From: an uncultured Phycisphaerales bacterium | GTDB lineage: Bacteria > Planctomycetota > Phycisphaerae > Sedimentisphaerales > Anaerobacaceae | DNA length: 64,000 nt | Reading direction: 5' to 3' | Assembly (NCBI GenBank): GCA_963760535.1 | Contig: CAVXEF010000026.1 | Location: 18,416-82,415 of the forward strand | Part shown: in pieces, positions 11,614-44,807 of the stretch | How positions within the stretch are numbered: position 1 is the stretch's first letter | Layout of the letters: each line of letters opens with the position of its first letter | Made by a program: the position numbers and the translations under genes | Notes under the pieces: generated by a model | What the model saw: the letters and a program-made list of their open reading frames with translations, nothing else | What the model was told of the DNA's origin: nothing | The model's database searches: none

Positions 11614-13775
11614 TTATTCCGAATGCATGGGTTTGCCTATGTATCCCGCTTCGATGCAGAACTGGATGATGTTACGCGCCAAAGGAGCGGCATCTCTGGG
11701 GCCTGATTGGCCGCCTTCAACAACTACAGCGATAGCAATACTGCGGCGCTGGGTATCTTCGGCAAAGCCTGCGAACCAGGCGCTGTCGGGCTTTTCCGTC
11801 GAGCCGGTTTTGCCATAAACCTTGACGGCCTGCCCGCCAAAGTTGGCGTAGGCGAACGGACTGTAAGCTGTTCCGCCCGGCTCATTGACCACAGCACTCA
11901 TACCATCACGGACAACCTCCAAAGTATGCGGTGAGATACCGAGGGCGATTTCGTCGCTCGTTGCTCGTCGCTCGTCGCTCGTATCATTAGGTGTAAGGAA
12001 AAGCCGAGGTAATTTATATACTCCACCCCTTGCGATTGCGGCAAAGGCGTTAGCGACCTGTAAAGCCGTAACGCGCAAATTTCCCTGGCCTATCCCGAAA
12101 TACCTCCTTTCGCCTTTCTCAAGAGATGGGACTTGCTCAAAACTCGTGACAGCGCCTTGCGGATTTACGTTTGAGATTACTCCTTGCGCCTGTCGTAATT
12201 CCCGTGGCCCGTGACCCGTGGCTCGTGACTCGTTTGAGTCATTTAGCCATGACGGCGAAAGTTGGATTTGGTGGCCGTAGCCGAATTTGAACAGCCATTG
12301 TTGCAAAACCTTCGGGTCAATTCTGTCGGCAAGACGAGAAAAATAGATATTACAACTACCCTTGATGGCGTTGCGAGCATTGTTCGGCCATTCGTTGTCG
12401 TGACAACTGCCAGGGTATCTAATATACAACCAGCAACTTGGCCAGCCCTGCGGCGCTTTTTGAGCGGGACAGCTGATAATCTCATCAGGAGTGATTTTGC
12501 CGTCTTCGAGGCCGGCGATAAGAATTACAGGTTTTATGGCCGAGCCGGGCGGATAGGATTTGTTCAGTGCCCGGTTTATCATAGGCGTATTGGGGGCACT
12601 GCTGATATTTCCGTAGTTATATCGCGCATAATTTAAATCGAAAGTCGGCGTTGAAACCATCGCCAAAATATCACCTTTTTCGACACTAATAACGACAGCC
12701 GATGTCGGCATTTTGCAGTTGGGATTGAGATTGCAGCCAAGAAGGTAATCTTCTATTTTCTTCTGCAGCTCGATATCGAGCGTAAGCGTAACATCTTTGC
12801 CGAGCTGAGTCTCGGTCTTACTTATGAGACTGCGGTCGAGGTCGTAAATTTCCTCGCCGCGTCGGCCTCGAAGAACGGTTTCACACACATATTCTGCGCC
12901 ATCCTCGCGTCCGCACACCTCATTATCCAAATATCTCGCCAATCTGTCGTCTGCGAAGAGCTTTTTATCCTCTTCCTGTGTGGCCGGCCCGACCCAGCCG
13001 ATTGTCTGAGCGGCAACACTGCCGTGAGGATAAACCCTCTCTGCTTCGGGAAGAATCTGAACACCGTCAGTGTGCATAAATTCAAACTGCGCAGTAAAGA
13101 CATCATCATCGGTTTTCAGCTCCAATAGTGGTTCGGCGGCGTCCATCTCTGCGATGTCATCGACCCTGCCGACAAGTAAAAGACGCTTCTCTTCGCTCGG
13201 AAATCTGGTTTCAAAATCCTCGATAACTTCCGAAAGAGGAATATGACTTATTCTGCCTTCATATTTTTGTATTATATTTGGGTCAGGGTCGTTTCTTCTC
13301 CAAGCAACAAATGTCCGCAGATTCCAGATATTGTCATTTATGCTTCTGATTTTGGTCTCGATATCCGCCCGCTCGAGGCCAAAATATGTACATTTATCGA
13401 TAATCTGCTGGATGTTTTCCAAGCCGGTTTCTATCGCCTCTTTGGCCTTGGCCTCGGCAGCAGCGTTAGACTTTTGCGCCGCTTTGAGCAGCTCGGCCCT
13501 TCGAACGCGCGGGTCGGCAAAACGGCTGAGCCGGTAGTTTATGTATAGTTGGAATCGCAGCTCATCAAACGCCAGAAGTCTGCCTTTATTGTCGAATATT
13601 CTGCCTCTGACGGTTTTTAACTGTCGAGACCGGCCGCCACTGAGTTTCAATTGTGCTATTTCGTCCTGAACGGACGAGCTGGGCAATAGCTGCATCTGCA
13701 CCAGCCGGAGCAGAAGAATCAGTAAAAACAGGACACTTGCGCCAACAAAGATTTTGATTCGCCTGCTTATACATC
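11614..13775 (-). CDS. mrdA: penicillin-binding protein 2 (elongasome transpeptidase); N-terminal frameshift near 13753
   Basis: 695-aa ORF with SAIKP (SxxK) and KTGST, lying downstream of mreBCD. The TM anchor IFVGASVLFLLILLLRLVQ lies in frame upstream of the tracked start. The only ATG (13775, MYKQANQ) is one frame off across an A/T run. Confidence 0.85.
11947..11988. repeat. heptanucleotide tandem array, unit TCGCTCG (4 good + 2 degenerate units), inside mrdA
   Basis: Units read directly: gatttcg TCGCTCG TTGCTCG TCGCTCG TCGCTCG tatcatt. Translated on the minus strand as TSDERRATSDE. Confidence 0.7.
12202..12236. repeat. heptanucleotide tandem array, unit CCGTGRC (4-5 units), inside mrdA
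   Basis: CCGTGGC CCGTGAC CCGTGGC TCGTGAC TCGTTTG. Translated on the minus strand as ESRATGHGPRE. Confidence 0.7.
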
Positions 13776-13800
13776 GTAACTTCTTGCCACAGGATGCGAA

Positions 13801-14343
13801 TTACTGATGGCTGAAACGATGTGTATTTATATGCATCCACCAAGCTGAGGGCAAGAACAAAAACGGCCCCACTATCGCCGAGTACAGCGATGTCCAAAAA
13901 AGAACGGTTCCGCCGATGCTGTCTGCCACCGCAGAACCTTTCAGAAATGTTAAAAGATGCGCCAAAGTCCCGGCCAAAAGAGACGTAATGAATATCGCAG
14001 CAAACTGATAAGGCATTTTCCTGATGGCGACAGCACGGTGCAGATATGCAAGCAAAGTGCCGAACAAACCGAAGCTGATTGTATAAGGCCCCATCGTACA
14101 GCCGATGATATCAGCCGCAAAACCTATTACGAAAGAGGTTATAATCGCCTCGGTGGTCCTGCAATAAATCGCAAAAAACACAAGAAGGACCAGCAACAGG
14201 TCAGGCTTGACATTCAAACCCGCCAGTGCGCTGGCCTGCAAAACGGCAACAAGCAGAACAAAAACACCAAAACGGAGCCACCACTGCACCTGAATATCCT
14301 CCCCAGATACCTTCTTTGCTGCACAAAACAGTCGGCCTTCCAC
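13801..14343 (-). CDS. mreD: rod shape-determining protein MreD
   Basis: 180-aa polytopic membrane protein between mreC and mrdA. Its GTG start overlaps the mreC stop (TAGTG). Confidence 0.7.
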   Translation of the reverse strand: MEGRLFCAAKKVSGEDIQVQWWLRFGVFVLLVAVLQASALAGLNVKPDLLLVLLVFFAIYCRTTEAIITSFVIGFAADIIGCTMGPYTISFGLFGTLLAYLHRAVAIRKMPYQFAAIFITSLLAGTLAHLLTFLKGSAVADSIGGTVLFWTSLYSAIVGPFLFLPSAWWMHINTHRFSHQ

Positions 14344-15134
14344 TACTGCGGATTCATTATGATAACAGCCACGTTCTCCAGAGCTTGCGTATTACACGAA
14401 GGTTTGACCGTTATATCCCACAGCAAGGGATGCTCTTTGTCGGTTTTGCAGTCGGTTACTTTCCCTATAATCATCGCTCCATCGAGCAAGCCGGCGGTTT
14501 TTTGAGCGAAGACCCCATCACCTACTTTTACTTTGTGCTCTTTGGAAAGCAACCGTATCTTCGCTGAGTTATTGCCGGCCCCCTGCATAATCCTCTTTAT
14601 GTTTGATTCCGCTAATTTGATTTCAACTTTTGAAGCCGGGTCGGTAAACAACCTGACCTTCGCCGTTCGAGAACCGGCCTCGGATACGGTCCCGATAACA
14701 TTATTAAGCCCGAGAATATATTGCCCTTTGGCTATGCCGTCGTTGCGGCCGCGGTTGATAATAAGTTCGCCTTTGGAGTCGTTAATCGCGGCTGTAATCA
14801 CATCAGCAACCACCAATTTTGCGCCTTCAAATATGCGTCTATTGCGCAATCCCGATAGTTGTTCAACCTGTTGACGTTCCTGCCAAAGCTCTTCTTCGAG
14901 GTTAGCGATGTAGTTCTGATACTGCTGCTCTGTCGATTTGTCTGTGAGCGGCTGCTGGCGGTGCGCTGCCAGTGAAACGCTTCTGCCGAAGCCCAGGGGC
15001 CAGCGAAAAATACGAGCAAAGCCGAACTGAAGCTTATTCGTCAGACTGTGAGGGGTAAACAGTAAAATGAGTCCGCCCAACATAAACCAGGTAAACAACA
15101 TCCGTCGGGAGACTTTAAATTGCTTCCTTGCCAT
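14343..15134 (-). CDS. mreC: rod shape-determining protein MreC
   Basis: 263 aa with an N-terminal TM helix, a coiled-coil (NLEEELWQERQQVEQL) and a beta-rich C-terminal domain, between mreB and mreD. Confidence 0.8.
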   Translation of the reverse strand: MARKQFKVSRRMLFTWFMLGGLILLFTPHSLTNKLQFGFARIFRWPLGFGRSVSLAAHRQQPLTDKSTEQQYQNYIANLEEELWQERQQVEQLSGLRNRRIFEGAKLVVADVITAAINDSKGELIINRGRNDGIAKGQYILGLNNVIGTVSEAGSRTAKVRLFTDPASKVEIKLAESNIKRIMQGAGNNSAKIRLLSKEHKVKVGDGVFAQKTAGLLDGAMIIGKVTDCKTDKEHPLLWDITVKPSCNTQALENVAVIIMNPQ

Positions 15135-15181
15135 GATTTGCGTGTTGTTGCTTAGATGTCACACATAAGAGAAAAGGCTCA

Positions 15182-16234
15182 CTACCATCCATATTCGCTA
15201 TGGTCCATTGTGTCCTTCCAAAGCTCCAGGTTCTCGAGGTAGACACTGGTACCGCGAGCGACGGCGCTGAGGGGGTCCTCGACCCTTTCGACTTTTAATC
15301 CAGTTGCGTTGGCCAGGACCGTATCCATCCCGCGCAGCAGCGCTCCGCCGCCACAGATATGGATACCGTTGTCAATCAAATCGGCAGCAAGCTCAGGCTC
15401 AGCCTTTTCGAGTGTCCGCGTGACCGCATCTATAATCGCAGCTATCGGTTCACGCAGGGCCTCCCGGATTTCCTCGCTTGTTATGACGATTTTCCTCGGC
15501 AGCCCTGATATAGTGTCCCTGCCCGCCACCTCCACCGTCAGTTCCTCTTCCAGCGGAGCAGCGGAGCCGATTTGTATCTTGACCTTTTCCGCTCTTGGTT
15601 CGCCGATAAGCAGGTTGTATGTTCTTTTGAGGTGATTGATGATTGCCTCGTCCATATCGTCACCAGCGACACGTATCGATTCACACGTGGCGATGTCAGC
15701 GAGACTCATTATGGCCACTTCTGTGGTGCCGCCGCCGATATCGACAATCATCGAGGCGGTAGGTTCGGTTATCGGCAGCCCCGCACCGATACCGGCAGCC
15801 ATTGGCTCATCAACAAGATAGACCTTGCGAGCCCCTGCCCGCTCGGCACTGTCGATGACGGCCCGGCGTTCGACAGCCGTTATGCCGCTCGGAACAGCAA
15901 TTACAACTCGCGGCCGTATCAAACTGCCTCTGCCATGAACCTTCCTGATAAAATAACTGAGCATCTTCTCGGTAATCTCGAAGTCGCTGATTACACCGTC
16001 CTTAAGGGGCCTTATCGCGCTGATTGAGCCGGGCGTTTTGCCAAGCATTTCCCGCGCGACCAGACCCACAGCCTCACCATTATTGAGCACAATATTGGTC
16101 CCTTTGCGGACGGCTACTACGGAAGGCTCGTTGAGGACAATGCCTTTATCCCGGACACAGACCAGGGTCGTACAGGTACCCAGGTCGATACCCATATCCA
16201 TGCTAAACCAGCCTAAAATCGTGTCCAGCAACAC
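15182..16234 (-). CDS. mreB: rod shape-determining actin homologue MreB
   Basis: DMGIDLGTCTTLVC...VIAVPSGITAVERRAV...DIGGGTTEVAI...ICGGGALLRGMD motifs; GTG start. Confidence 0.95.
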   Translation of the reverse strand: MLLDTILGWFSMDMGIDLGTCTTLVCVRDKGIVLNEPSVVAVRKGTNIVLNNGEAVGLVAREMLGKTPGSISAIRPLKDGVISDFEITEKMLSYFIRKVHGRGSLIRPRVVIAVPSGITAVERRAVIDSAERAGARKVYLVDEPMAAGIGAGLPITEPTASMIVDIGGGTTEVAIMSLADIATCESIRVAGDDMDEAIINHLKRTYNLLIGEPRAEKVKIQIGSAAPLEEELTVEVAGRDTISGLPRKIVITSEEIREALREPIAAIIDAVTRTLEKAEPELAADLIDNGIHICGGGALLRGMDTVLANATGLKVERVEDPLSAVARGTSVYLENLELWKDTMDHSEYGW

Positions 16235-16380
16235 CTTCGACTTCCCTTCCGCCTTCGCGGAGCGACCGTAGCTTCGGCGGAGGCGCTTCGATTATCACCG
16301 ACCACTTTTATACAGCTATACAACCAAAAATCGGAATTGTCAATGGTGAATCTTGCCCACCATCCGTGTGGCGGGTAAAG

Positions 16381-16539: not shown

Positions 16540-16555
16540 ACGTCAGCCTCACATT

Positions 16556-16610
16556 TTGGTAACTGGTAATTGGTGAATGGTAACCATTTAACCAGTTACC
16601 ATTTAACCAG
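16556..16610. repeat. hairpin-forming heptamer array (TGGTAAC units followed by complementary GTTACCA-type units)
   Basis: TGGTAAC TGGTAAT TGGTGAA TGGTAAC | CATTTAA CCAGTTA CCATTTA ACCAGTT. TGGTAACTGGT occurs in the left arm and in the reverse complement of the right arm. It starts directly after the stop codon at 16611-16613. Confidence 0.7.
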
Positions 16611-17516
16611 TTATAAATTAGTAGAAACACTATCACCAACCTTGGGCTGCTTGCTCACCAAGTCGAGCAAACCAACAGCTTTCTCGGCCTCGACGTCATA
16701 AATCAAAATATCACAAATGAACTCTTCACCACGGGTAACGTAAAACTTCATTCCTTCCTTTACACCATCCGCCGCGCCGACAGATATTTCAACCAGAGAA
16801 TTCGCCAAATCAACATCTGTCACCGAGCCTTTAAGGCTTATCTGCGCGGTGGCGGGTTCAGCAGGCCTAACTTTCGATATCTGCGGCGTTACCGGCACCG
16901 CGCCGACAACAGTCTTACCTGCCGGCCGAAGGAGATTATCCAACTTGGTCTGCAATTCGGTCTTCTCTTCGAGCAGACGCTTGTTATCTGTCTGCAACTG
17001 CTCTATTATGGCCATTTTTTCAACCAACTGTGCTGTAGTTTCACTTAGCTCTTTGCGATGTTTGATTTCTTCAGACTGGACACGCTTGAGCTCATCGAGC
17101 GTATTTTGCAACAGTGTCCCCTGCTTATCGTTGGTTGTGTAGAAATCCTTCGTTATACTTGTCCAGCTCTCCACCTGAGCAAGCAGCGACGCCCTTTCCC
17201 TATCAATATTCCCGATGTCGCCTTCCAGCTTGTCAATCTTCGCCTTAAGCGAGGCAATCTCACTTCTAAGTTTGTCTTCAAGCTGCTGCTTTTCACCGAT
17301 ATACTTATTTGCCTCGTCGGTCTTGGCCTTTAATTTTTTTTCAGAGGCGTCCCTGTCGGATTTTATATCGGCGTACTTTCCCCTGTAATTATCGGCGTTG
17401 GCAACGTAGGTTACGACAATACCGCAAAGAAATATAGAAGACAGTGTCAGCAGCACTATCAGAATCTTTGTAAGTGTGTTCAAAATCAGCTTCCTTTGCT
17501 TAATCAGGTTGGTCAT
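16611..17516 (-). CDS. bitopic coiled-coil protein (N-terminal TM, ~200-aa coiled coil, small C-terminal beta domain)
   Basis: TM segment ILIVLLTLSSIFLCGIVVTYV, then heptad-rich K/E/L sequence (KQQLEDKLRSEIASLKAKIDKLEGDIGNIDRERASLLAQVE...). First gene of the co-directional mreBCD-mrdA block. Confidence 0.6.
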   Translation of the reverse strand: MTNLIKQRKLILNTLTKILIVLLTLSSIFLCGIVVTYVANADNYRGKYADIKSDRDASEKKLKAKTDEANKYIGEKQQLEDKLRSEIASLKAKIDKLEGDIGNIDRERASLLAQVESWTSITKDFYTTNDKQGTLLQNTLDELKRVQSEEIKHRKELSETTAQLVEKMAIIEQLQTDNKRLLEEKTELQTKLDNLLRPAGKTVVGAVPVTPQISKVRPAEPATAQISLKGSVTDVDLANSLVEISVGAADGVKEGMKFYVTRGEEFICDILIYDVEAEKAVGLLDLVSKQPKVGDSVSTNL

Positions 17517-17719: not shown

Positions 17720-17801
17720 TCCAGCACCAATTGAACCCGAATTGAGAATGCCGTTCTCGTTCGTGGGCAGTATCTTTCACTGGCGGCCAATTGGTGCTGG
17801 A
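17720..17801. mobile_element. MITE-like palindromic element, copy A (80-82 bp, TIR TCCAGCACCAATTG)
   Basis: Perfect terminal inverted repeats CCAGCACCAATTG (17721-17733) and CAATTGGTGCTGG (17788-17800). Identical to copy B at 77 of 80 positions. It forms the last codons and the stop of the HEAT gene. Confidence 0.7.
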
Positions 17802-18918
17802 TTCTCACACAGCAGAACGGCCTTGGCAGCGGCGATACGAACCCGCTTGGACTGATTTTTAAGCAGCTTTGGCAAAAATTCGGTAACGGCAGCCGTCCGA
17901 ATTTGACCTATTGCCAGAGCCGTGAACATAGAAGATCGCTCAACACCTTCAGCGTCCATTCCCTCGTATGAGAATTTTTTCTGAAAACATCAAGCACCTC
18001 AAATTCTCCCTGGGAACTGCCGAGCGCACCGAGCTGTTCTGCCGCCGCCAGCCGAACCTCCAATACCTTATCATCCAACATTGTAATCAGGGCGTTCTTC
18101 GCCTGCTCCGTCCCAAGCGCGCCCATCGCCCTTATACCAATAACTCTGTCGTCTGCATACGCGCTTATCAGCATCGTCCACAGCTTCGGATATACCCTTT
18201 CATCTCTGAGCATTGCCATCGCTTCGGCAACCTGAAACCTGACTTTGTCATCCGAATCTTTGTCGCTTAAGGCCCAATCCAGCAGTTCCAACTGACCCCG
18301 CACCAATTGTTCAGAAGGGAAAGTTTCTGTTCTGGAGATTGATTTTGGTGCAATTGGTGCGGGGCCGCTTTTGCCAAGTATAAGGGCGGCGTTGGCACGA
18401 ACCGTATGGTCCTTGCTGATTATTGCCTTGCGAATGAGTCCAGCACCAATTGAACCCGAATCGAGAATGCCGTTCTCATTCGTGGGCAGTATCTTTCGCT
18501 GGCGGCCAATTGGTGCTGGATAGCCAAGCCTATACATCGCGTAAGCGGCGGCAATTCTGACATTTTCGTCGCGGTCTTTCAAAAGCTGACTTATCTGTTC
18601 TCTCGCAAAACGATACTGCATATCGCCGACAGCCAAAGCCGCTGCGAACCTGACCGGCACAAATTCATCAGTTAACAATCGTTTGACTTTCGGCATCAAT
18701 TCAGTTCGCCGCGTTGCCGCCACAACCTCAATCGCATTGACCCTGATGGAAGAGTCGGTGTCAGCCAAGGCATCCTCAATAATTCGAGCGGCTTCAGGCA
18801 CAAGGCTGTTAACAAGTCTGCTATCAGCCGATACAAGCCTGCTCTTTGAAGGCTCATTGCAACTCGGCAGAAATGCAAAAGCTAAAATTAAAAATGCAAA
18901 ACTGCGGAATTTTTTCAT
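17777..18918 (-). CDS. HEAT/PBS-lyase-repeat lipoprotein carrying three in-frame palindromic-element insertions (apparent frameshift near 17965)
   Basis: Lipobox MKKFRSFAFLILAFAFLPSC. Repeated ...VR..AA.AL... HEAT units. ORFs 17908..18918 and 17777..17959 join across a T6 run (...FEVLDVFRK|..EGMDAEGVERSSMFTALAIGQ...). Confidence 0.7.
18296..18364. mobile_element. MITE-like palindromic element, 69-bp variant (TIR CCCCGCACCAATTG)
   Basis: CCCCGCACCAATTG (18296-18309) and CAATTGGTGCGGGG (18351-18364) are perfect reverse complements. At 69 nt it equals 23 codons, translated as PAPIAPKSISRTETFPSEQLVRG. Confidence 0.6.
18439..18520. mobile_element. MITE-like palindromic element, copy B (80-82 bp, TIR TCCAGCACCAATTG)
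   Basis: Same TIRs as copy A with 3 substitutions in the 80-bp core. It adds exactly 27 codons (PAPIGRQRKILPTNENGILDSGSIGAG) between two HEAT helices. Confidence 0.7.
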
Positions 18919-18938
18919 TAGTTTTTCGTTCTGAACTT

Positions 18939-20653: not shown

Positions 20654-20675
20654 AAGTTTTTCACCTGTGCGATTT

Positions 20676-21668: not shown

Positions 21669-22329
21669 TTACGGCTTTATTATCTTTTGCTCTTCGAAGA
21701 CTTTGCCGGAGAGATAATCGGTAAAGGTAACCTTCACCGTTAAGGGCTTGTCGAAGCTCTTGACTATATCGTTTACGTCGAAAGCCAACCTGTAATTGGA
21801 GGTTAGAACAGTGTCAAACCAGAGCTTTTTCAACTCATCCGGCTTGACGTGCCACTTGGCCAGCATCGACTTGTCGCCTTCTTTGCTGAGGTCCCAAAGC
21901 TGCACATCAACAGTCGCCGCCGGCTTTTACCTTGTTGTCCTCGGCATCGACAGGCTGTACGTAAACGATTAACTTTTCCTTTCTGCCGTCTTTATCCTTA
22001 TCGTAGAGGTTGGTATATCTGGTAAGTTTGATTTCTTTCAGGTCGTAGAGACTGTCGAATTTGTCCTGCGGAAGACCCGAAATGACCTGTACCTGTTTTT
22101 TTAATTGCTGGTTCTGCGAATCGGCCTGCTGAAGCTGATTCTGGAGCTGCCTGTTTTCCCGCTTTAATGCCCGGATTTGCTCCGCCGGCGTAAGTTTTCC
22201 GCTATCTCCACAGCCTGCGGCAAATAAGAGCACAAGTGCAAAAGTGCACAAGAAGGCGGACGACAGAAGACGGAAGACGGATGACGGACGACGGACGACG
22301 GATGACGGATGACCAATGCACTTATACAT
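21669..22329 (-). CDS. lipoprotein of unknown function (apparent frameshift near 21905)
   Basis: Lipobox LLFAAGC. ORFs 21907..22329 and 21669..21905 join as ...DNKVKAGG|.TVDVQLWDLSKEGDK. The ATG overlaps the clpP stop (TAATG). Confidence 0.5.
22252..22314. repeat. heptanucleotide tandem array, unit GAWGACG, 9 units = 63 nt, encoding the N-terminus of the lipoprotein
   Basis: GAAGGCG GACGACA GAAGACG GAAGACG GATGACG GACGACG GACGACG GATGACG GATGACC. The minus-strand translation GHPSSVVRRPSSVFRLLSSAF shows a 7-aa peptide periodicity. Confidence 0.75.
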
Positions 22330-25126: not shown

Positions 25127-25289
25127 TCTCGTACTCCCGCACAACTTCACCTTATCCACTTAAGATAATAAACAAAAATGGCGTCGGGGCAACTTATTTT
25201 TCCCTTAGCCAGATTTTCGTGATTGCGAAACGCATCGGCGACCAACGCCAAACTATCGCTTAGCCGGTAACTCACCGATACTATAGTTT

Positions 25290-25366
25290 GTTCATAGTTC
25301 GTTGTTCATTGTTCATTGTTCATAGTTTGTTGTCGATGAACCCCCAACAATAAACTATGAACTCAC
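25290..25366. repeat. hairpin-forming heptamer array (GTTCATW units, then complementary AACnnnn units) abutting tRNA-Gly
   Basis: GTTCATA GTTCGTT GTTCATT GTTCATT GTTCATA GTTTGTT GTCGATG | AACCCCC AACAATA AACTATG AACTCAC. GTTCATAGTTT (25318-25328) pairs perfectly with AAACTATGAAC (25352-25362). Confidence 0.7.
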
Positions 25367-25368
25367 AG

Positions 25369-25440
25369 AGCGGGTGATGAGATTCGAACTCACGACATTC
25401 ACGTTGGCAACGTGACGCTCTACCACTGAGCTACACCCGC
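25369..25440 (-). tRNA. tRNA-Gly (anticodon GCC)
   Basis: Reverse complement GCGGGTGTAGCTCAGTGGTAGAGCGTCACGTTGCCAACGTGAATGTCGTGAGTTCGAATCTCATCACCCGCT folds as a cloverleaf with anticodon loop TTGCCAA. Confidence 0.85.
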
Positions 25441-26930: not shown

Positions 26931-28542
26931 TCAATCTCTTTTTTTACGGTATCGCTTATAGTCGATACCTAATTCGTTGACTTTATATCGTATAATCCTT
27001 GCGGTGGTTTTTAAATCTCGAGCTATTGCCGCCAGATTCCCATCGTTACGTTTGAGCGCATCAACAATCAGATCTCGTTCAAACAAATTGGTTCTTTCCT
27101 CCAATGAACCTGTGCCGATTGTGCCGGATGCGTCCGAGGTCTGAAGCGTTGGCGGCAGGTGATGTCCATGAATAACTCCGTCGCTGCTTAAAAGCACTGC
27201 TCTTTCGATACAGTTTTCAAGCTCACGGACGTTACCCGGCCAGTGATATGACACCATCATATTAATCGCAGGTGTACTGATGCGTCTAATGTCTTTGCCC
27301 ATTTTCCTGGAATACCGCTCAACGAAGAAATCAGCCAATAGCAGGATGTCATCCTTTCGCTGGCGCAGAGGCGGCAAGAAGACAGGAAACACGTTTATAC
27401 GATAGTAAAGGTCCTGCCTGAAACTTCCCTGGTCAACACATTTCTCTAAGTCTCGGCTTGTAGCTGTAATAATCCTTGCGTTTGTCCTTAAGGTGCGGTT
27501 GCTGCCGACGCGTTCAAATTCCTTTTCCTGAAGAACTCGAAGAAGCTTTACCTGGGTAGCGGAAGAGAAGTCACCTATTTCGTCGAGAAATATGGTGCCA
27601 TTGTTTGCCTCTTCAAGCCGACCTTTGCGACTTTGTATCGCTCCGGTAAAAGCCCCTTTTTCATGACCGAACAACTCGCTCTCGAGAAGGTTCTCATTCA
27701 GGGCAGCACAGTTGACTTTTACAAAAGTCCCTTTTGCTCTGGAACTGGAGAAGTGAATGGCATGGGCGACCAATTCTTTGCCGGTACCCGATTCACCACG
27801 TATAAGAACCGTCGTATCGCTGCCGGCGACCTGGTGAATCTGGTGATACACATCACGCATAGTATTGGAATTGCCTATTATATTTTCGGGGCGAAACTTG
27901 TCTTCCAGCTCATGACGTAATCGCAGATTTTCGTCTTCGAGCTGTTGACGCTCAATAGCAGCTTCCCGCCTGGTCCTCAAATCGTTTGCAATCATACTTG
28001 CAACGATGCTTAATACCCGCATTTCCTCATCGAGCGATGTTGTCTTCATCATAAGGTCTATCAACCGAAATTGTCCCAATTACATCATTGCCAATTGAAA
28101 TCGGTACACAAATAAAGCTTAAATCCTGCTTTGTAACATTCCATCTTTCAAACCGATTCAAAAAAAGCGGTTCCTGAGAAACTTTCGGGACAATCATTGC
28201 CTTGCCGGTTTGCATTACCTTACCAGTTACACCCTCTCCTATTCGATACGTAATTTTTCGACTCTGTTCCTGCGAGAGATTGTGAGCCGCTTCAATCCTA
28301 ATCTCATTGCCGTCAGGTGCAAGAAGCGTGATTGTACCTCTATTGAGACCAAGCTCATTGTCCAGCACCTCCAAAACCCTGGCAAGGTTCTCCTGCCCAC
28401 GTGCCCCTGCGGCCAGTATTTGACTAACCTTATAAAGGCTTTCAAGCTGCTGGACCTGATGTGAGGTATATACTACGTTATTTTGCCAAAGTGTCGTTTT
28501 CTTGGCCATTTTAAGAAAATCCTTCCAATTCTGATACGACAT
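26931..28542 (-). CDS. NifA/NtrC-like sigma-54-dependent activator, GAF-AAA+-HTH (apparent frameshift near 28040)
   Basis: The GAF half (28027..28542) and the AAA+ half (GESGTGKE, GAFTGA, ESELFGHEKGAFTGA, C-terminal Fis-type HTH) join as ...VDRPYDEDN|.SLDEEMRVLSIVA. Divergent from the amtB cluster. Confidence 0.8.
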
Positions 28543-37058: not shown

Positions 37059-38470
37059 AAGGTTTTCTAAAATACGGGCGTCAGGAAGTTGGACATCGGC
37101 CGGTCGAGGAAAGAATACATGATTTTGCCGAGTTCGACCTGCCGCTTACGCCGGAGCAAATCCACCAGCAGACGGCACGATGTATGGACTGCGGCATCCC
37201 GTTTTGCCACGGTGTCGGTTGTCCGCTGCAAAATAATATACCGGAACTAAATGAACTGGTGTACAAGGGTAAATGGCAACAGGCCTGTGAATTACTTCAT
37301 TTGAACAACAACTTTCCTGAAATTACAGGCCGGGTGTGTCCTGCACCGTGCGAAACCGCGTGTACGCTCTCCGTTAATGACGAACCTGTCCTTATCAGGC
37401 ATATTGAGCTCCAGATTGTCGAACGTGGATTTAAGGAAGGATGGATAAAGCCGGCACCGGCCAAACAGAAAACAGGTAGAAAAATCGCAGTGGTCGGCTC
37501 CGGCCCTGCCGGCCTGGCGGCCGCGCAGCAACTGGCACGAGCAGGCCATCAGGTAACAGTCTTTGAAAAAGATGAGCAGATAGGAGGCCTGTTGAGATAT
37601 GGTATTCCGGAATTTAAGCTTGAAAAACATATAATCGACCGTCGCCTCGAACAATTAAAAGGCGAAGGTGTGGAATTTCAGACAGGTGTTAACGCTGGGG
37701 AAGATACATCGGTTCGTTATTTGGAAAAGATGTTTGATTGTATCTGCCTGACAATGGGTGCTGAAACGCCACGAGACCTCGAAATACCCGGTCGAGGATA
37801 TGAGAATATTCTGTTTGCTACGGATTATTTGAAGACTCAAAACAAAATCTGCTGCGGCGAACCTGTAGACGAATCTTCGGTCATTACAGCAAAGAATAAA
37901 GTTGTGGTTGTAATAGGCGGCGGTGATACGGGAAGCGACTGTGTAGGAACAGCACGCAGAGAGGGTGCCAAAGAGATTTATCAGCTGGAGATTTTGCCGG
38001 AGCCGCCGCCAGCAAGACCGCCGGATACACCCTGGCCTATGTGGCCGCGAATTATGAGAACATCTTCTTCTCACGAAGAAGGCTGCCAGCGCCGATGGAG
38101 CGTAATGACCAAGAGATTCTCAGGTGTAGAAACCCGCGTAACATGCCTGCATTGCTGCCAGGTTAAGTGGATAAAGGAAAACGGGACGTGGAAACTGAAA
38201 GAGTTAGCAGGCTCCGATTTTACTCTTGAGGCCGACATAGTGCTCTTGGCGATGGGGTTTCTTCACGCAACACATAACGGGCTTATAAAAAAATTAGGTT
38301 TGAAACTTGATAAATCAGGCAATGTGGCAGTAGATAATTACCAGACAAGCGAATCAAGGGTATTTGCTGCTGGCGACACAATTAACGGGGCTTCATTGGT
38401 TGTTCGAGCCATCGACAGCGGACGCAAAGCAGCTGCCGCCATTGATGCCTGGTTAAAACCACAGTTTTGA
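37046..38470 (+). CDS. gltD: glutamate synthase small subunit (NADPH)
   Basis: 474 aa with CMDCGIPFC, Fe-S cysteines and VVGSGPAGLAAAQQLARAGH. It overlaps the gltB stop by 13 nt. Confidence 0.9.
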   Translation: MGEIKGFLKYGRQEVGHRPVEERIHDFAEFDLPLTPEQIHQQTARCMDCGIPFCHGVGCPLQNNIPELNELVYKGKWQQACELLHLNNNFPEITGRVCPAPCETACTLSVNDEPVLIRHIELQIVERGFKEGWIKPAPAKQKTGRKIAVVGSGPAGLAAAQQLARAGHQVTVFEKDEQIGGLLRYGIPEFKLEKHIIDRRLEQLKGEGVEFQTGVNAGEDTSVRYLEKMFDCICLTMGAETPRDLEIPGRGYENILFATDYLKTQNKICCGEPVDESSVITAKNKVVVVIGGGDTGSDCVGTARREGAKEIYQLEILPEPPPARPPDTPWPMWPRIMRTSSSHEEGCQRRWSVMTKRFSGVETRVTCLHCCQVKWIKENGTWKLKELAGSDFTLEADIVLLAMGFLHATHNGLIKKLGLKLDKSGNVAVDNYQTSESRVFAAGDTINGASLVVRAIDSGRKAAAAIDAWLKPQF

Positions 38471-38498
38471 GTTTTTAGTTTTAGGTTTTCAGTTTCTT
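38464..38498. repeat. heptanucleotide array GTTTTNN x5 filling the gltD-nadE spacer
   Basis: GTTTTGA (contains the gltD TGA stop) GTTTTTA GTTTTAG GTTTTCA GTTTCTT, followed directly by the nadE ATG at 38499. Confidence 0.6.
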
Positions 38499-40186
38499 AT
38501 GCGAATAGCACTGGCACAATTTGACGCGTCGGTCGGTAATATCAAAGGTAATATCGGGAAAATGGAAAAGCTAAGCGCCAAAGCGTACGACTTAGGTGCT
38601 GACATTGTGGTTTTTCCCGAAATGTCGGTGTGCGGTTATCCTCCGGAAGACCTGTTGTTTAAAAAACATTTTCTGGAAGACAACCGCTTGGCGGTGGAAC
38701 GCCTGGCACAAAAGGCCAGTCGTTTGGGGTCTGGGGTCAGGGGTCTGGAGTCTGGGATTACTGTCGTAGCTGGTTTTGCAGAGATAAATGACAAGGGCTG
38801 CTTCAATTCACTTGCTGTATTGCAAGGCGGCAAGATTGCGAGGATTTATCGAAAAAGCATTTTACCTAATTATGGGGTGTTCGACGAAAGGCGATATTTT
38901 CGCCCGGGGACAGAAGCGGTACGAATCACAATAAAAGATATGGCTGTGGTGTTTGCAATCTGTGAAGATATATGGCGTCTGAAGTGGCTGGACAGTTTCC
39001 TTGGAGAAATACCACGGATAGACATAATCATAAATATATCCGCGTCTCCCTTTCACATAGGCAAAATCAGCCAGCGTGAAGAAATTCTCCGCCAATGCGC
39101 AAAGCATTTTAACTGTGCCGTTGCCTATTGCAATTTGGTCGGCGGTCAGGATGAACTTGTTTTTGACGGCCGAAGCATGTTTGTGGATTCATCCGGCAAC
39201 GTTGTTTGCGTAGCTGCGGCGTTTGCAGAAGATATGCTGCTGGCAGATTTAGTAGCAGCGGAGAACGTCTGTCGTCTGTTGCCGGTCGTCGGTCGTCGGT
39301 CGACGAGAGACGAGGGACGAGGGACGAGAGACGAGATTGCCGAGGTTTATAATGCACTGATTCTTGGGGTTAAAGACTACGTACGAAAGAACAATTTTTC
39401 CAAAGTTGTAATCGGCCTCAGTGGTGGAATAGATTCATCTCTTACGGCGGCAATTGCCGCAGGTGCGCTGGGGGCAAAAAATGTCGTCGGCGTAACTATG
39501 CCGTCACAATTTAACAGTCCGGATACTATCAGAGATGCACAAACACTGGCAGACAATCTTGATATTGAGTTTCACGTTTTGCCAATCAAGGCAACGCTGG
39601 AGCAATTTAACGAAGCTGCTGACAAAAATGCCGGGATGGGACAAAACGGGTATAGCCTATGAAAATCTGCAGGCAAGAATTCGAGGATGTATACTTATGT
39701 CTTTGAGCAACCGATACGGTTATCTTGTTTTGACCACCAGCAACAAGAGCGAAACCGCTGTCGGATATGCCACCCTGTATGGTGACACAGCGGGTGGCTT
39801 TGCGGTTTTGAAAGACGTGCCCAAGACAATGGTTTATCAATTGGCTGAGTATGTAAATAAGGTCCATCACGGAGTTATCCCCGCTACGGTAATACAACGA
39901 CCTCCGAGTGCTGAACTAAAGGAAAACCAAAAGGATACAGATTCCCTTCCGGAGTATGACATCCTCGACCGCGTACTTCGTAGTTATGTGGAAGAAGACA
40001 AAGGGGTTTCTGAGTATGGTCAAGGAAGGCTTACCCAAGAATATCGTTAATAAGGTCGTCAGTATGGTGGACCGGAATGAATACAAAAGGAGACAATCTC
40101 CACCGGGGATTAAAATCACTCCGAAAGCATTTGGTAAAGACAGGCGAATGCCCATAACCAACCTCTATACTTCCGAAAGACCTTAG
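38499..40186 (+). CDS. nadE: glutamine-dependent NAD+ synthetase (two apparent frameshifts, two in-frame heptamer arrays)
   Basis: CN-hydrolase domain (MRIALAQ...[12 protein letters not shown]) plus synthetase domain ([24 protein letters not shown]). Joins occur near 39635 (..AGMG|[13 protein letters not shown]) and near 40011 (..DKGVSE|[22 protein letters not shown]). Confidence 0.85.
38719..38760. repeat. heptanucleotide tandem array, unit GGGGTCT (4 good + 2 degenerate units = 42 nt), inside nadE
   Basis: gtcgttt GGGGTCT GGGGTCA GGGGTCT GGAGTCT gggatta. Translated as [14 protein letters not shown]. Confidence 0.7.
39267..39336. repeat. bipartite heptanucleotide array, 5 x GTCNGTY then 5 x GACGAGR, inside nadE
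   Basis: GTCTGTC GTCTGTT GCCGGTC GTCGGTC GTCGGTC | GACGAGA GACGAGG GACGAGG GACGAGA GACGAGA. The arms are complementary at 5 of 7 positions per unit and are centred on GTCGAC. Translated as [23 protein letters not shown]. Confidence 0.8.
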
Positions 40187-40262
40187 GATAAATAATAGCT
40201 CCGCAGTCAATAATTTGGAAGAAACAAAAGAACAGACAATGGATTCGACAGGCTCACCATAA

Positions 40263-43200
40263 ATGCCAAAACGCAAAGACGTTAAAAAGATACTGATTAT
40301 AGGTTCCGGACCTATCGTTATAGGTCAGGGCTGTGAATTTGACTACTCGGGCACACAGGCGTGCAAAGTATTAAAACAGGAAGGTCTTAAGGTTGTGCTT
40401 GTCAATAGCAACCCCGCTACAATAATGACCGACCCCGAGATGGCTGACAGAACCTATATTGAACCGATTACACCTGAGATAGTTGAAAAAATAATTCAGA
40501 AAGAACGGCCTGACAGTCTCCTTCCCACCCTCGGAGGACAAACAGGTCTAAATACCGCAGTGGCATTAGCTGAAAATGGGGTATTGAAAAAGTACGGTGT
40601 TCGCCTTTTGGGAGCTAATTTGCAGGCAATCAAAAGGGCTGAAGAAAGAGACAGATTCAAGAAAGTAATTCAGGACTGTGGTCTGGAAGTCCCTACAAGT
40701 GGCTATGCACATTCCTGGCAACAGGCCGAGGAAATAATCAAGTATATTGGTTTTCCTGCTATCATCAGGCCTTCATATACTCTGGGTGGTACAGGCGGCA
40801 ATATCGCCTACAATATCGAAGAGTATAAAAATCACATCGAATGGGGCTTGAATCTAAGCCCTAAGAACCGGGTCTTGATTGAGGAATCCGTTATAGGCTG
40901 GAAAGAGTATGAGCTGGAGGTAATGCGGGACAAAAAAGATAATGTAGTTATAGTCTGCCCGATAGAAAATCTTGACCCGATGGGTATTCATACCGGCGAT
41001 AGTATTACAGTGGCACCTGCTCAGACTCTCACTGATAAAGAATATCAGATAATGCGCAATGCCGCTCTTAAAATTATAAGGGCTATCGGCGTTGAAACAG
41101 GCGGTTCGAATATACAGTTTGCGGTAAATCCCGACAACGGCAAGCTATACGTAATAGAGATGAACCCCCGTGTCTCACGAAGCTCCGCCCTTGCTTCCAA
41201 AGCCACGGGTTTTCCCATCGCAAAGATAGCTTCTCTATTGGCAGTCGGATACACACTTGACGAGATTCCCAACGATATTACCAAAAAGACACCGGCCTGT
41301 TTCGAGCCTACCATTGACTATTGTGTCGTTAAGTGGCCGCGTTTTACATTTGAAAAATTCCCTAACACCACTCCTGAGCTTACCGTGCAGATGAAGTCGG
41401 TTGGCGAAGCAATGGCGATAGGAAGAACATTCAAGGAAGCACTGCAAAAAGCCATAAGGTCATTGGAGATCGACCGCTATTCACTTGATAAAAGACATAT
41501 CAATGGTGAGCTTACATTAGCTCAGTTAAAAAAGAAACTGCAAACCAACTGCTGGGACAAAATCTGGTATGTAGCCGAGGCCTTTAGGAGAAAACTCTCA
41601 GCCGATGAAATATTTGCCTTTACAAAAATCGACCCGTGGTTCCTCAATAATATAAAGGACATCATTCGACTTGAAGAGAAAATAAAATCCATAGGCAGCC
41701 TGACGGACATAGATGCCGGTTTGATGAGAACTATCAAAGAATACGGCTTCAGCGATAAGTATCTGGCGTCTATTCTGAAGGTCGATGAACCTCGGTTCAG
41801 AAAATATCGTCAGAGGATGGAAGTAAATCCGGTTTACAAAACCGTCGATACCTGTGGAGCTGAGTTTGAGGCTCATACCCCCTATCTTTACTCGACGTTT
41901 GAGAGCGAATGCGAAGCCAATCCAAGCAGCAGAAAAAAAATTGTTATCCTCGGCGGAGGACCAAATCGCATAGGGCAGGGCATAGAATTCGATTATTGCT
42001 GCGTACACGCCGCTTTTGCATTGAAGGAGATAGGTATTGAATCAATAATGGTAAACTGCAATCCGGAAACAGTAAGTACCGACTACGATACTTCCGACAG
42101 GCTGTATTTTGAGCCGTTGACATTTGAAGATGTTATGTCAATCGTCGAAAAAGAAAAACCTGACGGTGTAATTGTTCAGTTCGGCGGACAAACTCCGCTC
42201 AAATTGGCTGTGCCATTAGAGAGAGCCGGCGTGAAAATAATCGGCACATCACCTGACAGCATTGCCTGTGCTGAGGACCGTAAGCGCTTCAATAGGTTAG
42301 TCGAGAAATTAGGGCTTCGCCAACCCGATAGCGGGACGGCAACAACTTACGACCAGGCCTTAAAAATCGCTCAAAGACTTGGATTTCCTTTACTCATCCG
42401 GCCATCTTTTGTGCTGGGAGGCCGAGCGATGCAGATTGTCCATGACGAAAAATCATTCAAGGCCGCTGTGGAAAAAGCATTTGAAGCCTCAGGCGAACAT
42501 CCGGTTTTGATAGATAAATTTCTTGATGACGCAACGGAACTGGACGTTGATGCTATCAGTGACGGCAAGCGAGTGGTTATTGGCGGGATTATGGAACACG
42601 TGGAGGAAGCGGGTGTGCACTCAGGCGATAGTGCCTGTTCGCTTCCGCCTGTTTCGATAAGTAAAAGAATCCTCGATGAAATCAGAAGACAAACCAGCCT
42701 CCTCTCGCTTGAATTAAAAGTACAGGGCCTTATGAACGTTCAGTTTGCTGTAAAAGATGACGAAATTTATATACTCGAGGTCAACCCACGTGCCTCGAGG
42801 ACAATCCCGTTCGTAAGCAAAGCAATTGGCGTACCTCTGGCGAAACTCGCAACAAAAGTGATGACGGGAATGACCTTGGATGAGTTGAAATTCACAAAAG
42901 AAGTACGGCCTGAACATTTTTCGGTAAAGGAGGCCGTGTTTCCATTTTTGAAGTTCCCCGGCATAGACACACTTCTCGGCCCGGAGATGCTTTCTACCGG
43001 CGAGGTTATGGGTATAGATGATGATTTTGGAATCGCCTTCGCAAAATCTCAGATAGCAGCCGGCAACAGCTTGCCGATGAGTGGCAATGTGTTGTTTAGT
43101 GTCAAGGACAGCGATAAGAAAAAAGCCGTCGAACTCGCACACAAAATGCACAAAATGGGATTTAAGATTGTTGCAACAAAGGAAACGTGCCTTGAATTCG

Positions 43201-43475
43201 TAAACAATAACATACCATCAGAATTTGTGCTTAAGATGACCGAAGGCAGGCCGAATATAGTTGACCGGATTATAAACGGCAAAATCGACCTTATCATAAA
43301 TACCACGGCAGGCGCTCAATCCATCAGGGATTCTTTTCCAATAAGAAGAACCGCCCTCGATAAACAGATTCCCTATGTAACAACCATAAGAGCCGCCGCA
43401 GCGGTTGTAAAAGCCATAACAGCAATGAAGGCGCAAAAAATCAGAGTAAAACCTATTCAGCGTTATCACAATTAG
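40263..43475 (+). CDS. carB: carbamoyl-phosphate synthase large subunit
   Basis: Intact 1070 aa with two ATP-grasp halves and an MGS-like C-terminal domain. Confidence 0.95.
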
Positions 43476-43489
43476 GCTCGGACTTAAGA

Positions 43490-44626
43490 TTGAAAGCTGT
43501 TCTGTTACTTGAAGATGGTACGGTTTTTGAAGGTAAGTCTTTTGGAGCTAAAGGCCAAAAGTGCGGGGAAGTTGTCTTTAATACGAGTATGACAGGCTAT
43601 CAGGAAATACTGACCGACCCATCCTACTATGAGCAGATAATCACAATGACATATCCGCTGATTGGCAATTATGGTACAAACCAGTTAGACTGGGAATCTC
43701 GAAAAGTTTTTGCAAGCGGTTTTATTGCCAAAGAGAACTGCAGATACCCAAACAACTGGCGAAAAGAGGACTCTCTAAGCCGATACTTGAAAGCCAACAA
43801 CGTAATTGGTCTTGAAGGCATTGATACAAGAAAACTCGTAAAACACATTCGCACTCAAGGGGCTATGAAAGGAATTATTTCTTCCACTGAATTTCAAATC
43901 GCCAGGCTTGCAAAAAAATTGGACGAATATCCCGGCCTTGTCGGCAGGGATATAGTTAAAGACGTAAGTATCAAAAAAGCTTACAAATGGAATAATGGTG
44001 TTGTTGATGTACTGACGGGTTCGGAGCATAAAGATGAAAAAAAATACAAGGTCGTAGCCTTCGATTTCGGCATAAAACACGTTATTCTCAGACTGCTTCG
44101 CTCGCATGGCTGTGACGTAAAGGTCGTACCCGCCGCTACTTCGGCCCAGGAAGTTCTCAGCCAGAAGCCCGATGGTGTATTCTTGAGCAACGGCCCGGGT
44201 GACCCTGCACCCGTAAGTTATGCTATTGAAACCATAAGAAAGCTTCTTGGCAAAGTCCCAATTTTTGGTATTTGTCTCGGCCATCAATTACTTGGCCTTG
44301 CCCTGGGCGGCCAAACTTACAAACTCAAGTTCGGCCATAGGGGTGCGAATCATCCGGTTAAAAACCTGCTGACAGGTGCGGTCGAAATAACCTGCCAGAA
44401 TCACGGCTTCTGTGTTGACATCGATTCCCTGAAGGATAAAGACATCGAGCTTACACATATGAATCTCAATGACAATACCGTAGAAGGTATCAGGTCTGAG
44501 AAGCTATCAGCTTTTGCAGTTCAGTACCATCCCGAAGCCTCGCCGGGTCCTCATGATTCCAGATATCTCTTTAAACAGTTTATTGAGTTAATGAACCAAC
44601 GGAAAAAAAGAGTACACAGATACTAA
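43490..44626 (+). CDS. carA: carbamoyl-phosphate synthase small (glutaminase) subunit
   Basis: 378 aa; MKAVLLLEDGTVFEGKSFGA, GICLGHQLL, HPEASPGPHD. TTG start 14 nt after carB. Confidence 0.95.
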   Translation: MKAVLLLEDGTVFEGKSFGAKGQKCGEVVFNTSMTGYQEILTDPSYYEQIITMTYPLIGNYGTNQLDWESRKVFASGFIAKENCRYPNNWRKEDSLSRYLKANNVIGLEGIDTRKLVKHIRTQGAMKGIISSTEFQIARLAKKLDEYPGLVGRDIVKDVSIKKAYKWNNGVVDVLTGSEHKDEKKYKVVAFDFGIKHVILRLLRSHGCDVKVVPAATSAQEVLSQKPDGVFLSNGPGDPAPVSYAIETIRKLLGKVPIFGICLGHQLLGLALGGQTYKLKFGHRGANHPVKNLLTGAVEITCQNHGFCVDIDSLKDKDIELTHMNLNDNTVEGIRSEKLSAFAVQYHPEASPGPHDSRYLFKQFIELMNQRKKRVHRY

Positions 44627-44678
44627 AGAGTAACTGATATGGTACAGCAGAAACTGTTCCAACCCAACAAAGACAAAC

Positions 44679-44765
44679 CGGAGCAGGAGGGATTCGAACC
44701 CCCGTTACCCGAAAGGGTAAAACGGTTTTCAAGACCGTCGCCTTAAACCGCTCGGCCACTGCTCC
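44679..44765 (-). tRNA. tRNA-Ser (anticodon UGA)
   Basis: Reverse complement GGAGCAGTGGCCGAGCGGTTTAAGGCGACGGTCTTGAAAACCGTTTTACCCTTTCGGGTAACGGGGGTTCGAATCCCTCCTGCTCCG has a long variable arm and anticodon loop CTTGAAA. Confidence 0.85.
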
Positions 44766-44772
44766 ATATCAA

Positions 44773-44807
44773 CTCGTTGCCCGCGCCTCGTATCTCGTTG
44801 CTGTGAT
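44773..44807. repeat. weak, degenerate heptamer-periodic tract next to tRNA-Ser
   Basis: CTCGTTG CCCGCGC CTCGTAT CTCGTTG CTGTGAT. Only three of five units resemble each other. Confidence 0.3.

Follow-up and report, generated by a model that had tools for sequence, protein, structure and literature searches.

The 64,000-nt stretch considered here (the window), taken from contig CAVXEF010000026.1 of an uncultured Phycisphaerales bacterium (GCA_963760535.1, positions 18,416 to 82,415), carries rsmH, the mreB-mreC-mreD-PBP2 operon, lnt, two clpP genes, tig, three tRNA genes and an amt-glnK-glnA-gltB-gltD-nadE-carB-carA block, and scattered through both genes and spacers it holds short tandem arrays of 7-nt units, each array with its own unit sequence. 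An earlier reading by a model, here called the original prediction, had listed nine such tracts in intergenic and coding DNA, attributed them to a shared generating process rather than to the spread of one repeat, and placed them in a bacterium of the Planctomycetes-Verrucomicrobia-Chlamydiae (PVC) type. On the last point sequence comparison agrees: the nearest relatives of the window's NadE and PBP2 are metagenome-assembled genomes labelled Sedimentisphaerales, Phycisphaerae or Planctomycetota, by which we take the host to be a Sedimentisphaerales-like planctomycete and hence a PVC bacterium. A search of the window against Rfam returned the three tRNAs only, and no RNA family at any array.

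The window was scanned with Tandem Repeats Finder (TRF; minimum score 30), overlapping rows being collapsed for the counts per period, and with a lag-k scan of our own over lags 3-15, for which 100 third-order Markov simulations served as the null. Half of the collapsed TRF arrays (11 of 22) have period 7, every other period being represented 0-3 times; similarly, the lag scan returns seven arrays at lag 7 and 0-2 at any other lag, the simulated number at lag 7 having a mean of 0.11 and a maximum of 1. In the nine main window arrays TRF reports 0% indels, so the 7-nt register is strictly kept within each of them. Eight of the nine predicted tracts were recovered by TRF, but the ninth, at 44773-44807, was missed both by TRF at score 30 and by the lag-7 scan and is indistinguishable from chance. 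Another of them, TGGTAAC with its complement, was recovered in part, since the first arm has period 7 but the complementary arm (16583-16613) is reported by TRF with a 15-nt period made of units of 8 and 7.

The relatives were represented by about 0.4 Mb of contigs, for the most part orthologous regions, from independent assemblies held at JGI (Ga0315282, Ga0315293, Ga0114918, Ga0315545), NCBI (JABUBL, SDBU), ENA (ERZ27247700) and Logan (SRR9617863); a metagenome scan with Tig gave 29 related loci at 56-92% amino acid identity, and further contigs were reached through NadE and PBP2 homologues, while 1.13 Mb of non-planctomycete DNA served as controls. Period 7 accounts for 81 TRF arrays in the Tig-linked relatives (311 kb), any other period for 20-31. 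By the lag scan, period-7 density is 109 per Mb in the window, 155 in close relatives and 123 in mid-distance relatives, as against 21 at more distant planctomycete nadE loci and 8 in the controls, which are dominated by periods 6, 9 and 12; densities thus differ up to ~7-fold among related planctomycete lineages and 14- to 19-fold from unrelated bacteria. The peak is present in all the DNA sampled, that is, 64 kb of the source genome and the largely orthologous ~0.4 Mb of its relatives. The comparison with neighbouring periods, on which the original prediction had staked itself, therefore came out in its favour in the window and the relatives, the controls having no such excess.

Exact duplications give the same picture. 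Tandemly duplicated 7-mers number 85 in the clade where 24 are expected, a 3.5-fold enrichment, whereas the controls have no excess (73 observed, 83 expected); 5-mer and 8-mer duplications in the clade are at expectation, and runs of at least three exact copies number 13 for 7-mers, no other k between 4 and 11 having more than one. The arrays as a whole are imperfect, with 72-92% matches, a median of 4.6 copies and a maximum of 13.7, the longest being TCTGTCC x13.7 (L109, 4-99) and CGAGCAT x13.1 (L096, 6246-6337). The L109 array stands at a contig end, and shorter arrays in L105 (35-90) lie at the first bases of that locus, which suggests that assembly from short reads breaks at long arrays, and the arrays are for that reason probably longer and more numerous than counted here.

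The period is constant, and the units are not. Among the 92 period-7 arrays with at least three copies in the window and the relatives, 53 canonical unit classes were counted; the classes that recur mostly represent the same orthologous site in several contigs, and non-orthologous recurrence is rare. Diverse units with mostly orthologous recurrence point to a process that sets the period and acts on local sequence, not to one repeat spreading, as the original prediction had argued. Its placement of the arrays in both kinds of DNA likewise stands: outside long ORFs (open reading frames) there are 46 period-7 arrays and at most eight of any other period, and inside long ORFs period 7 is again the commonest, with 34 arrays and at most six of any other. 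Since long ORFs make up 78% of the sampled DNA and contain 42% of the arrays, spacers are ~4.9-fold denser in them. Five arrays of the window are translated, two in PBP2, one in a lipoprotein, one as a NadE insertion and one as a NadE double array, and the spacer arrays lie at the rsmH 3' end and between the coiled-coil gene and mreB, tRNA-Gly and tig, and gltD and nadE. An inverted copy is found no more than 90 nt away for 16 of 74 arrays (22%). The three inverted-array regions of the window (25280-25372, z -4.8; 39255-39345, z -2.9; 16540-16625, z -2.0) fold better than shuffled sequences; most of its direct arrays do not. The pentamer GACGA is present in several units within coding sequence (11951, 22252, 39266, 39302); it was rejected as a shared core motif, because a need for units that are stop-free and hydrophilic in all three frames accounts for it better, and the other units are unrelated.

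Table 1. Repeat features of the window and of related contigs, in window coordinates unless a contig is named.
Feature	Position	Strand	Remarks
ACAGAAA x4.1	7711-7739	+	TRF, 72% matches, score 37; additional to the original prediction
ACGAGCG x4.6, PBP2 site B	11951-11982	-	TRF, 92% matches; encodes TSDERRATSDE
CACGGGY x~4 (TRF 3.9), PBP2 site A	12201-12233	-	TRF; encodes NESRATGHGPRE
TGGTAAN x4 and inverted complement	16556-16613 (first arm 16557-16584)		TRF; hairpin
AAATGCA x4.4 (weak)	18871-18901	-	TRF, 69% matches, 15% indels; additional to the original prediction
CGTCNTC x8.9, lipoprotein signal peptide	22252-22313	-	TRF, 85% matches; period 21 outscores period 7
AATGAAC-type array and inverted partner	25288-25366 (TRF 25288-25327, 5.7 copies)	-	TRF; long hairpin
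GTTTTNN x4.7	38463-38495	+	TRF; unstructured
GGGGTCT x4.6	38718-38756 (TRF 38725-38756)	+	TRF; in nadE CN-hydrolase domain
GTCNGTY x5.3, then GACGAGR x5.0	39266-39302, then 39302-39336	+	TRF; nadE interdomain linker
Weak CTCGTTG tract	44773-44807		Not an array; ~13 of 28 positions match at lag 7
Palindromic elements	17724-17797, 18300-18360, 18443-18516; L116 10729-10801; L117 9798-9870; L084 16688-16761		

The PBP2 gene (mrdA; 11614-13701, minus strand) contains two arrays, both in the transpeptidase domain, at variable loops (residues 488-500 and 571-585) for which the alignment to E. coli MrdA (6g9f) is only loose and gapped. At site A the array has 85% matches at period 7 and 89% at period 14; exactly 21 nt, or three units, are absent in L082, the units have decayed in L081, several homologues have a 7-aa gap, and in L118 an ATCGAGA array of 5.7 copies, ~260 nt upstream of that contig's site-B arrays, lies approximately at site A by position. 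The site-B array is common to the window and L082 (79% amino acid identity) and P0052 has a 7-aa deletion there, while in L118 and L120, at 62-65% amino acid identity, the loop holds related CATCGAG/CGAGCAT arrays; that the site is still periodic at this divergence argues for continued homogenisation.

Elsewhere in the left part of the window, the rsmH array spans the stop codon of the gene (also mraW; ORF 6776-7723, Pfam MraW) and runs into the following spacer, and the hairpin at 16556-16613 (-21 kcal/mol, z -2.0) lies in the spacer that separates mreB from the coiled-coil ORF (16611-17516, minus strand). The weak AAATGCA array lies at the 5' edge of a HEAT-repeat ORF and in the spacer between lnt and this ORF, where L083 and L084 have other, inverted heptamer arrays (AGCTTAA / TTTAAGT), their position being given by insertions unique to L083. 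Within lnt itself, L083 alone carries a 21-nt insertion of three AACTCAA units.

The array at 22252-22313 encodes the signal-peptide n-region of a small lipoprotein whose ORF (21907-22329) includes the lipobox LFAAGC and has an ATG that overlaps a clpP stop codon. Copy number at this site ranges from 4.9 to 10.9 across contigs, with 42 nt between L087 and L086, and in all seven sequences compared (the window, L083, L084, L086, L087, L097 and L108) the ORF stays in frame through the array to the lipobox. Adjoining the array at 22226-22252 is a period-8 repeat, AAGTGCAC x3.4, which encodes the hydrophobic core of the signal peptide and in whose region the window and L083 differ by a 28-nt indel.

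The hairpin at 25288-25366 stands directly 3' of tRNA-Gly(GCC) (25368-25440, minus strand) and upstream of tig, and folds well (-25.8 kcal/mol, z -4.8). Array and hairpin are kept in six of seven other aligned metagenome contigs, L087 being different, and relative to the window the length of the array differs by 7 nt in L083 and L084, by 14 nt in L088 and by 21 nt in L085, L086 and L106. A terminator pattern search gave no terminator-like match at this hairpin or at 16556-16613, none of the hairpins having the pattern of an intrinsic terminator, and the idea that the inverted arrays act as terminators was rejected. On the minus strand at 25280-25336, upstream of tig, array units provide -35-like hexamers (TGAACA and TCGACA) 17 nt from TATAGT/AACAAT; both of these promoter-like matches amount to 9 of 12 positions and may be due to chance.

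At gltD-nadE the arrays appear in three settings. The GTTTTNN array takes up the entire gltD-nadE spacer, reaching from the stop codon of the one gene to the ATG of the other; L116 shares it, and L114 lacks it, its spacer being 17 nt shorter and of different sequence. The GGGGTCT array is a 33-nt (11-aa) insertion in nadE found in the window only among the sequences compared, absent in 10 of 10 aligned planctomycete relatives and in L114/L116 (81% amino acid identity). Further on, the two interdomain-linker arrays pair with each other, and the hairpin that results is imperfect (z -2.9 to -4.0; -44.1 kcal/mol). Across the window (39230-39345), L001-L011, L114 and L116 the length of this linker is kept at 72-99 nt and its sequence has been replaced repeatedly: it is ordinary sequence in the more distant relatives, a set of self-complementary heptamer arrays (AAAATTC/GAAGTTC) in L001/L002, a palindromic element in L114/L116 and the inverted heptamer arrays in the window. 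Each of the three replacements folds into a hairpin (z -2.0 to -4.0).

How the arrays change can be read from such orthologous sites. In MAFFT alignments at 85-88% identity the indel-length spectrum is too noisy for a genome-wide test of multiples of seven, and length changes were therefore taken from clearly orthologous arrays only. The 7-, 14- and 21-nt differences at tRNA-Gly/tig are unit-wise, as the original prediction had expected, and its proposition that coding arrays change in steps of three units is borne out by the 21-nt indels in PBP2 and lnt and by the 42 nt in the lipoprotein, with the frame kept in 7/7. We count as births of arrays the nadE insertion of the window, the AACTCAA triplet of L083 and the GTTTTNN spacer array that the window and L116 have and L114 does not. 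Many arrays score higher at period 14 or 21 than at 7, higher-order periods that point to block duplications. Four contig pairs that are 99.6-100% identical over ~63 kb have no difference in array length, so that turnover is slow, and the arrays behave as slow microsatellites and not as phase-variation switches.

The explanation we favour, with a probability of roughly 0.6, is that these are heptanucleotide microsatellites subject to unit-wise slippage with a lineage-specific preference for 7 nt, and tolerated in spacers, loops, linkers and signal peptides. Short tandem arrays would arise locally from any 7-mer present, and would then grow, shrink and be homogenised by whole-unit slipped-strand mispairing in replication or repair, the Sedimentisphaerales-like clade being, on this explanation, strongly and specifically biased to 7-nt units. 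About 7 nt may be the stretch of DNA that interacts with the polymerase, which would fit the proposal made in 2007 for other heptamer-rich bacteria. The arrays would mostly be neutral passengers, with selection filtering only where they survive: spacers would allow single-unit steps, and the surface loops, interdomain linkers and signal peptides of proteins would let through only those net changes that are multiples of three, typically three units, equal to 21 nt or 7 aa. Some arrays would have gained an inverted partner and thereby formed hairpins. The sequences themselves show the excess and its reach across the lineage, the diversity of units, length differences by whole units, preserved frames, periodicity retained over long persistence and stability in near-identical strains; slippage as the mechanism, the molecular reason for seven and neutrality are what we infer from these patterns.

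Several observations weigh against this explanation. With no length change in contigs at least 99.6% identical, turnover is slow, and processes other than slippage, for instance unequal recombination or gene conversion, could have a share in it. Generic slippage leaves unexplained both the 3.5-fold enrichment of 7-mers with 5-mers and 8-mers at expectation and the near-background density of arrays in related planctomycete lineages. At array sites there are also indels of 17, 18 and 33 nt, which are not multiples of seven, and the inverted partners of 22% of arrays, together with the arrays placed right before start codons, leave room for function at individual loci. Finally, the relatives sampled are orthologous regions, so the array counts are not fully independent.

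Alternatively, the arrays could be selected functional elements whose 7-nt period is the footprint of a binding partner, candidates being sites for single-stranded nucleic acid-binding proteins (of the cold-shock type, with an oligonucleotide/oligosaccharide-binding fold contacting ~7 nt each), RNA hairpins for processing or stability, and unstructured translation leaders. The ~4.9-fold greater density of arrays outside long ORFs is in keeping with this, as are the inverted partners, the tRNA-Gly 3' hairpin kept in six of seven contigs, the filling of the spacer up to the nadE ATG by GTTTTNN in both the window and L116, and the suggestion by MacGregor (2015) of translational roles and cold-shock-protein binding for TAACTGA repeats (PMC4679880). 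Yet the units fall into 53 unrelated classes, which no single sequence-specific partner fits; 34 arrays lie in long ORFs and are translated; presence and absence vary at the same site between close relatives, both between L114 and L116 and at the nadE insertion; and most direct arrays are no more structured than shuffled sequences, with hairpins that are not terminator-like. We therefore consider a general functional cause rather unlikely, unit diversity and presence/absence arguing against it, while a selected function is possible for individual hairpins and leaders.

It is also conceivable, although we regard it as doubtful, that the lineage possesses, in place of generic slippage, a dedicated or idiosyncratic mechanism of expansion in a 7-nt register, switched on in this sublineage and nearly off in its sister lineages. 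A peculiarity of the replicase or of a repair enzyme, or a process driven by an element, would then act on any local heptamer. Were this so, there would be a standing source of 7-aa insertions by which essential proteins have their loops, linkers and signal peptides remodelled, and the building of hairpins from inverted arrays would be a further outcome.

The arithmetic of frame in the coding arrays recalls contingency loci, in which slippage by a single unit would switch genes in phase variation. The foremost case would be the lipoprotein after clpP, with its 8.9-copy array in the 5' coding region and 4.9-10.9 copies among relatives, and heptanucleotide arrays have a precedent of this kind in neuO (PMC13001214). 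The lipoprotein ORF, however, is in frame in 7/7 contigs, as compared with 66% of neuO genomes being OFF (PMC13001214); its units are imperfect at 85% matches; array length is the same in contig pairs at least 99.6% identical over ~63 kb; and most arrays in coding sequence reside in essential housekeeping genes (PBP2, nadE, lnt), for which an OFF state would be lethal. Among the features by which contingency loci are recognised, a 5' coding position was found for the 22252-22313 array only, no long near-perfect tract was found, and ON and OFF states did not coexist among the contigs compared. Phase variation is thus an improbable account.

More improbable still is mobile or templated deposition, be it a spread in the manner of the short tandemly repeated repetitive (STRR) sequences, miniature transposable elements or the footprints of 7-bp target-site duplications. 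A fixed period with a locus-specific unit is indeed the pattern that target-site-duplication footprints would produce, and separate small palindromic insertion elements are active in the same genomes, including at the nadE linker in L114/L116. But TRF reports 0% indels in the arrays and their units adjoin without any foreign sequence, their changes by 1-3 units and 14/21-nt higher-order structure fit slippage, non-orthologous recurrence of units is rare, and no transposase was found among that part of the window ORFs which was scanned against Pfam. Elements that combine a 7-bp target duplication with footprint-leaving excision are, as far as is known, rare in bacteria. The footprint idea was rejected on the ground that the arrays are gap-free and change by 1-3 units. 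As for an assembly or sequencing artefact, its chance is practically negligible, because, although some 11 ORF-breaking single-base insertions relative to relatives indicate that base-level quality of the window may be imperfect, contigs obtained by separate projects and assemblers (JGI, ENA, NCBI and Logan) have the same arrays at matching positions, and arrays in coding sequence keep their reading frames.

How, then, do these microsatellites relate to heptamer repeats described elsewhere? As reported in later papers, the 2007 survey by Mrazek, Guo and Shah found long simple sequence repeats (SSRs) with 5-11-nt units in excess, heptanucleotides being the most abundant, with diverse units and a phylogenetically patchy distribution, and proposed polymerase slippage as the cause, ~7 nt being in contact with the enzyme (PMC4679880, PMC4692102); the repeat-rich examples relayed from it are Burkholderia, cyanobacteria, actinobacteria and Xanthomonas (PMC4679880, PMC4692102). 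The present clade shares the excess of 5-11-nt units, the predominance of period 7, the multitude of unit sequences and the patchy distribution, and differs in that the host belongs to Planctomycetota and that long ORFs, too, hold more arrays of period 7 (34) than of any other period (at most six). The finding is accordingly an instance of the generic heptanucleotide-SSR class in a new phylum, and not a new kind of system.

That class fits better than the precedent favoured by the original prediction, the STRR heptanucleotides of heterocystous cyanobacteria. Calothrix PCC 7601 has three defined heptamers of this kind, each at many loci (PMC4692102); the likeness lies in tandem 7-nt units, several copies per array, a mainly intergenic position and dispersal on the chromosome, and the unlikeness in 53 units for 92 arrays here, with recurrence mostly by orthology, another phylum, and 42% of arrays in long ORFs. 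Of the traits that define STRR sequences, then, tandem heptanucleotides are present, but there is no small set of dispersed heptamers and the host is not a heterocystous cyanobacterium.

The repeats GGGAATC in Xanthomonas and GGGGA(T/C)T in Nostoc PCC 7120, where each genome has one G-rich, quadruplex-prone unit (PMC4692102), are similarly heptameric and intergenic, occur sometimes as inverted pairs able to form stem-loops, and vary widely in length and sequence at orthologous spacers of close species (PMC4692102); in contrast, the units here are heterogeneous and only GGGGTCT (38725-38756) is G-rich. TAACTGA direct repeats occur in marine Beggiatoaceae and in some cyanobacteria and Bacteroidetes; they are suspected to have spread horizontally, and a role in translation has been proposed for them (PMC4679880). 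They resemble the present arrays in being heptamers, in having 2-6 copies or more, in often lying immediately before a start codon, and in that contigs break at them (PMC4679880). Other heptamers are mixed in for Microcystis and some Bacteroidetes (PMC4679880), but TAACTGA is a single dominant unit and no unit is dominant here.

In the neuO gene of the E. coli K1 prophage CUS-3, an AAGACTC array in the 5' coding region is translated in all three phases (PMC13001214), the full-length product being made only when copy number is divisible by three; there are 3-53 near-perfect copies, with measurable switching and 66% of genomes OFF (PMC13001214). The same arithmetic applies to the lipoprotein, PBP2 and lnt arrays, whereas these have 3-14 imperfect copies, the lipoprotein ORF is ON in 7/7 contigs, and near-identical strains are unchanged. 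The (GATAGRA)n satellites of Chloroflexus aurantiacus and the microsatellites of Burkholderia, thought to be local replication errors (PMC6749651), likewise represent bacterial genomes with many heptamer-based arrays, although Chloroflexus has a single unit where here there are many. The same survey lists 29 satellites for the planctomycete Rhodopirellula baltica and mentions no heptamer bias (PMC6749651). Our literature search found no paper linking Planctomycetota or Phycisphaerae to heptamer repeats. The novelty that the original prediction claimed was overstated, an excess of heptamers having been published in 2007, by the later accounts of that survey, and arrays within coding sequence being known from neuO (PMC13001214).

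What causes the heptamer preference in bacteria has been a question since the 2007 survey, and the answer from a polymerase footprint is, as it comes down through the papers citing it, speculative. The clade described here is a clean new case, with a peak sharply at seven and many metagenome assemblies available; given also the differences in density between lineages, one could place the trait on a phylogenetic tree and correlate it with the presence of replication and repair genes, and the value of the clade lies in being a sharp comparative system for the question of why seven. Heptamer arrays are, moreover, a recurrent source of 7-aa indels, which affect signal peptides as well as the essential enzymes PBP2, NadE and Lnt and matter for annotation, protein alignment and assembly, the L109 contig beginning inside a long array. 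Somewhat unusual are the dominance of period 7 even in long ORFs and the persistence of arrays in loops of essential proteins over deep divergence.

A second and unrelated class of repeats consists of the palindromic elements, 61-74 nt long, which are variable inside and bounded by an exact terminal inverted repeat GCACCAATTG...CAATTGGTGC, in many cases lengthened to CCCCGCACC... or TCCAGCACC.... Of the three copies in the window, two are situated within the HEAT-repeat ORF (17908-18918, minus strand), which continues through them in frame, and the third lies just downstream of it, where the frame is broken; L083 is without 69 nt at the second copy and without 66 nt at the first. In another frame, an element of this class constitutes the NadE interdomain linker of L114/L116/L117, at the site of the window's inverted arrays. 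These elements resemble the Rickettsia palindromic elements, which insert in frame in ORFs.

In comparison with L083/L114/L116 the window has single-base insertions at 28048, 28565, 28600, 28658, 29699, 29999, 30172, 32521, 33064, 39612 and 40016, all but one or two of which lie within ORFs and break them, and none of which lies in a heptamer array. The broken genes belong to the nitrogen-assimilation cluster: the gene of a sigma-54 activator, amt, which is split into three pieces, gltB (251 aa + 1346 aa) and nadE (387 aa + 171 aa). The relatives have these genes intact (activator 525 aa, Amt 452 aa, GltB 1520 aa, NadE 548 aa); the deposited record likewise has a truncated NadE of 387 aa. Either the affected genes are pseudogenes that cluster in a single pathway, or the insertions are errors of assembly at a local scale. 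Near 28 kb the cumulative GC skew reaches its minimum, with genes on the minus strand to the left and on the plus strand to the right, a switch that could be replication-origin-like or simply one at the level of operons.

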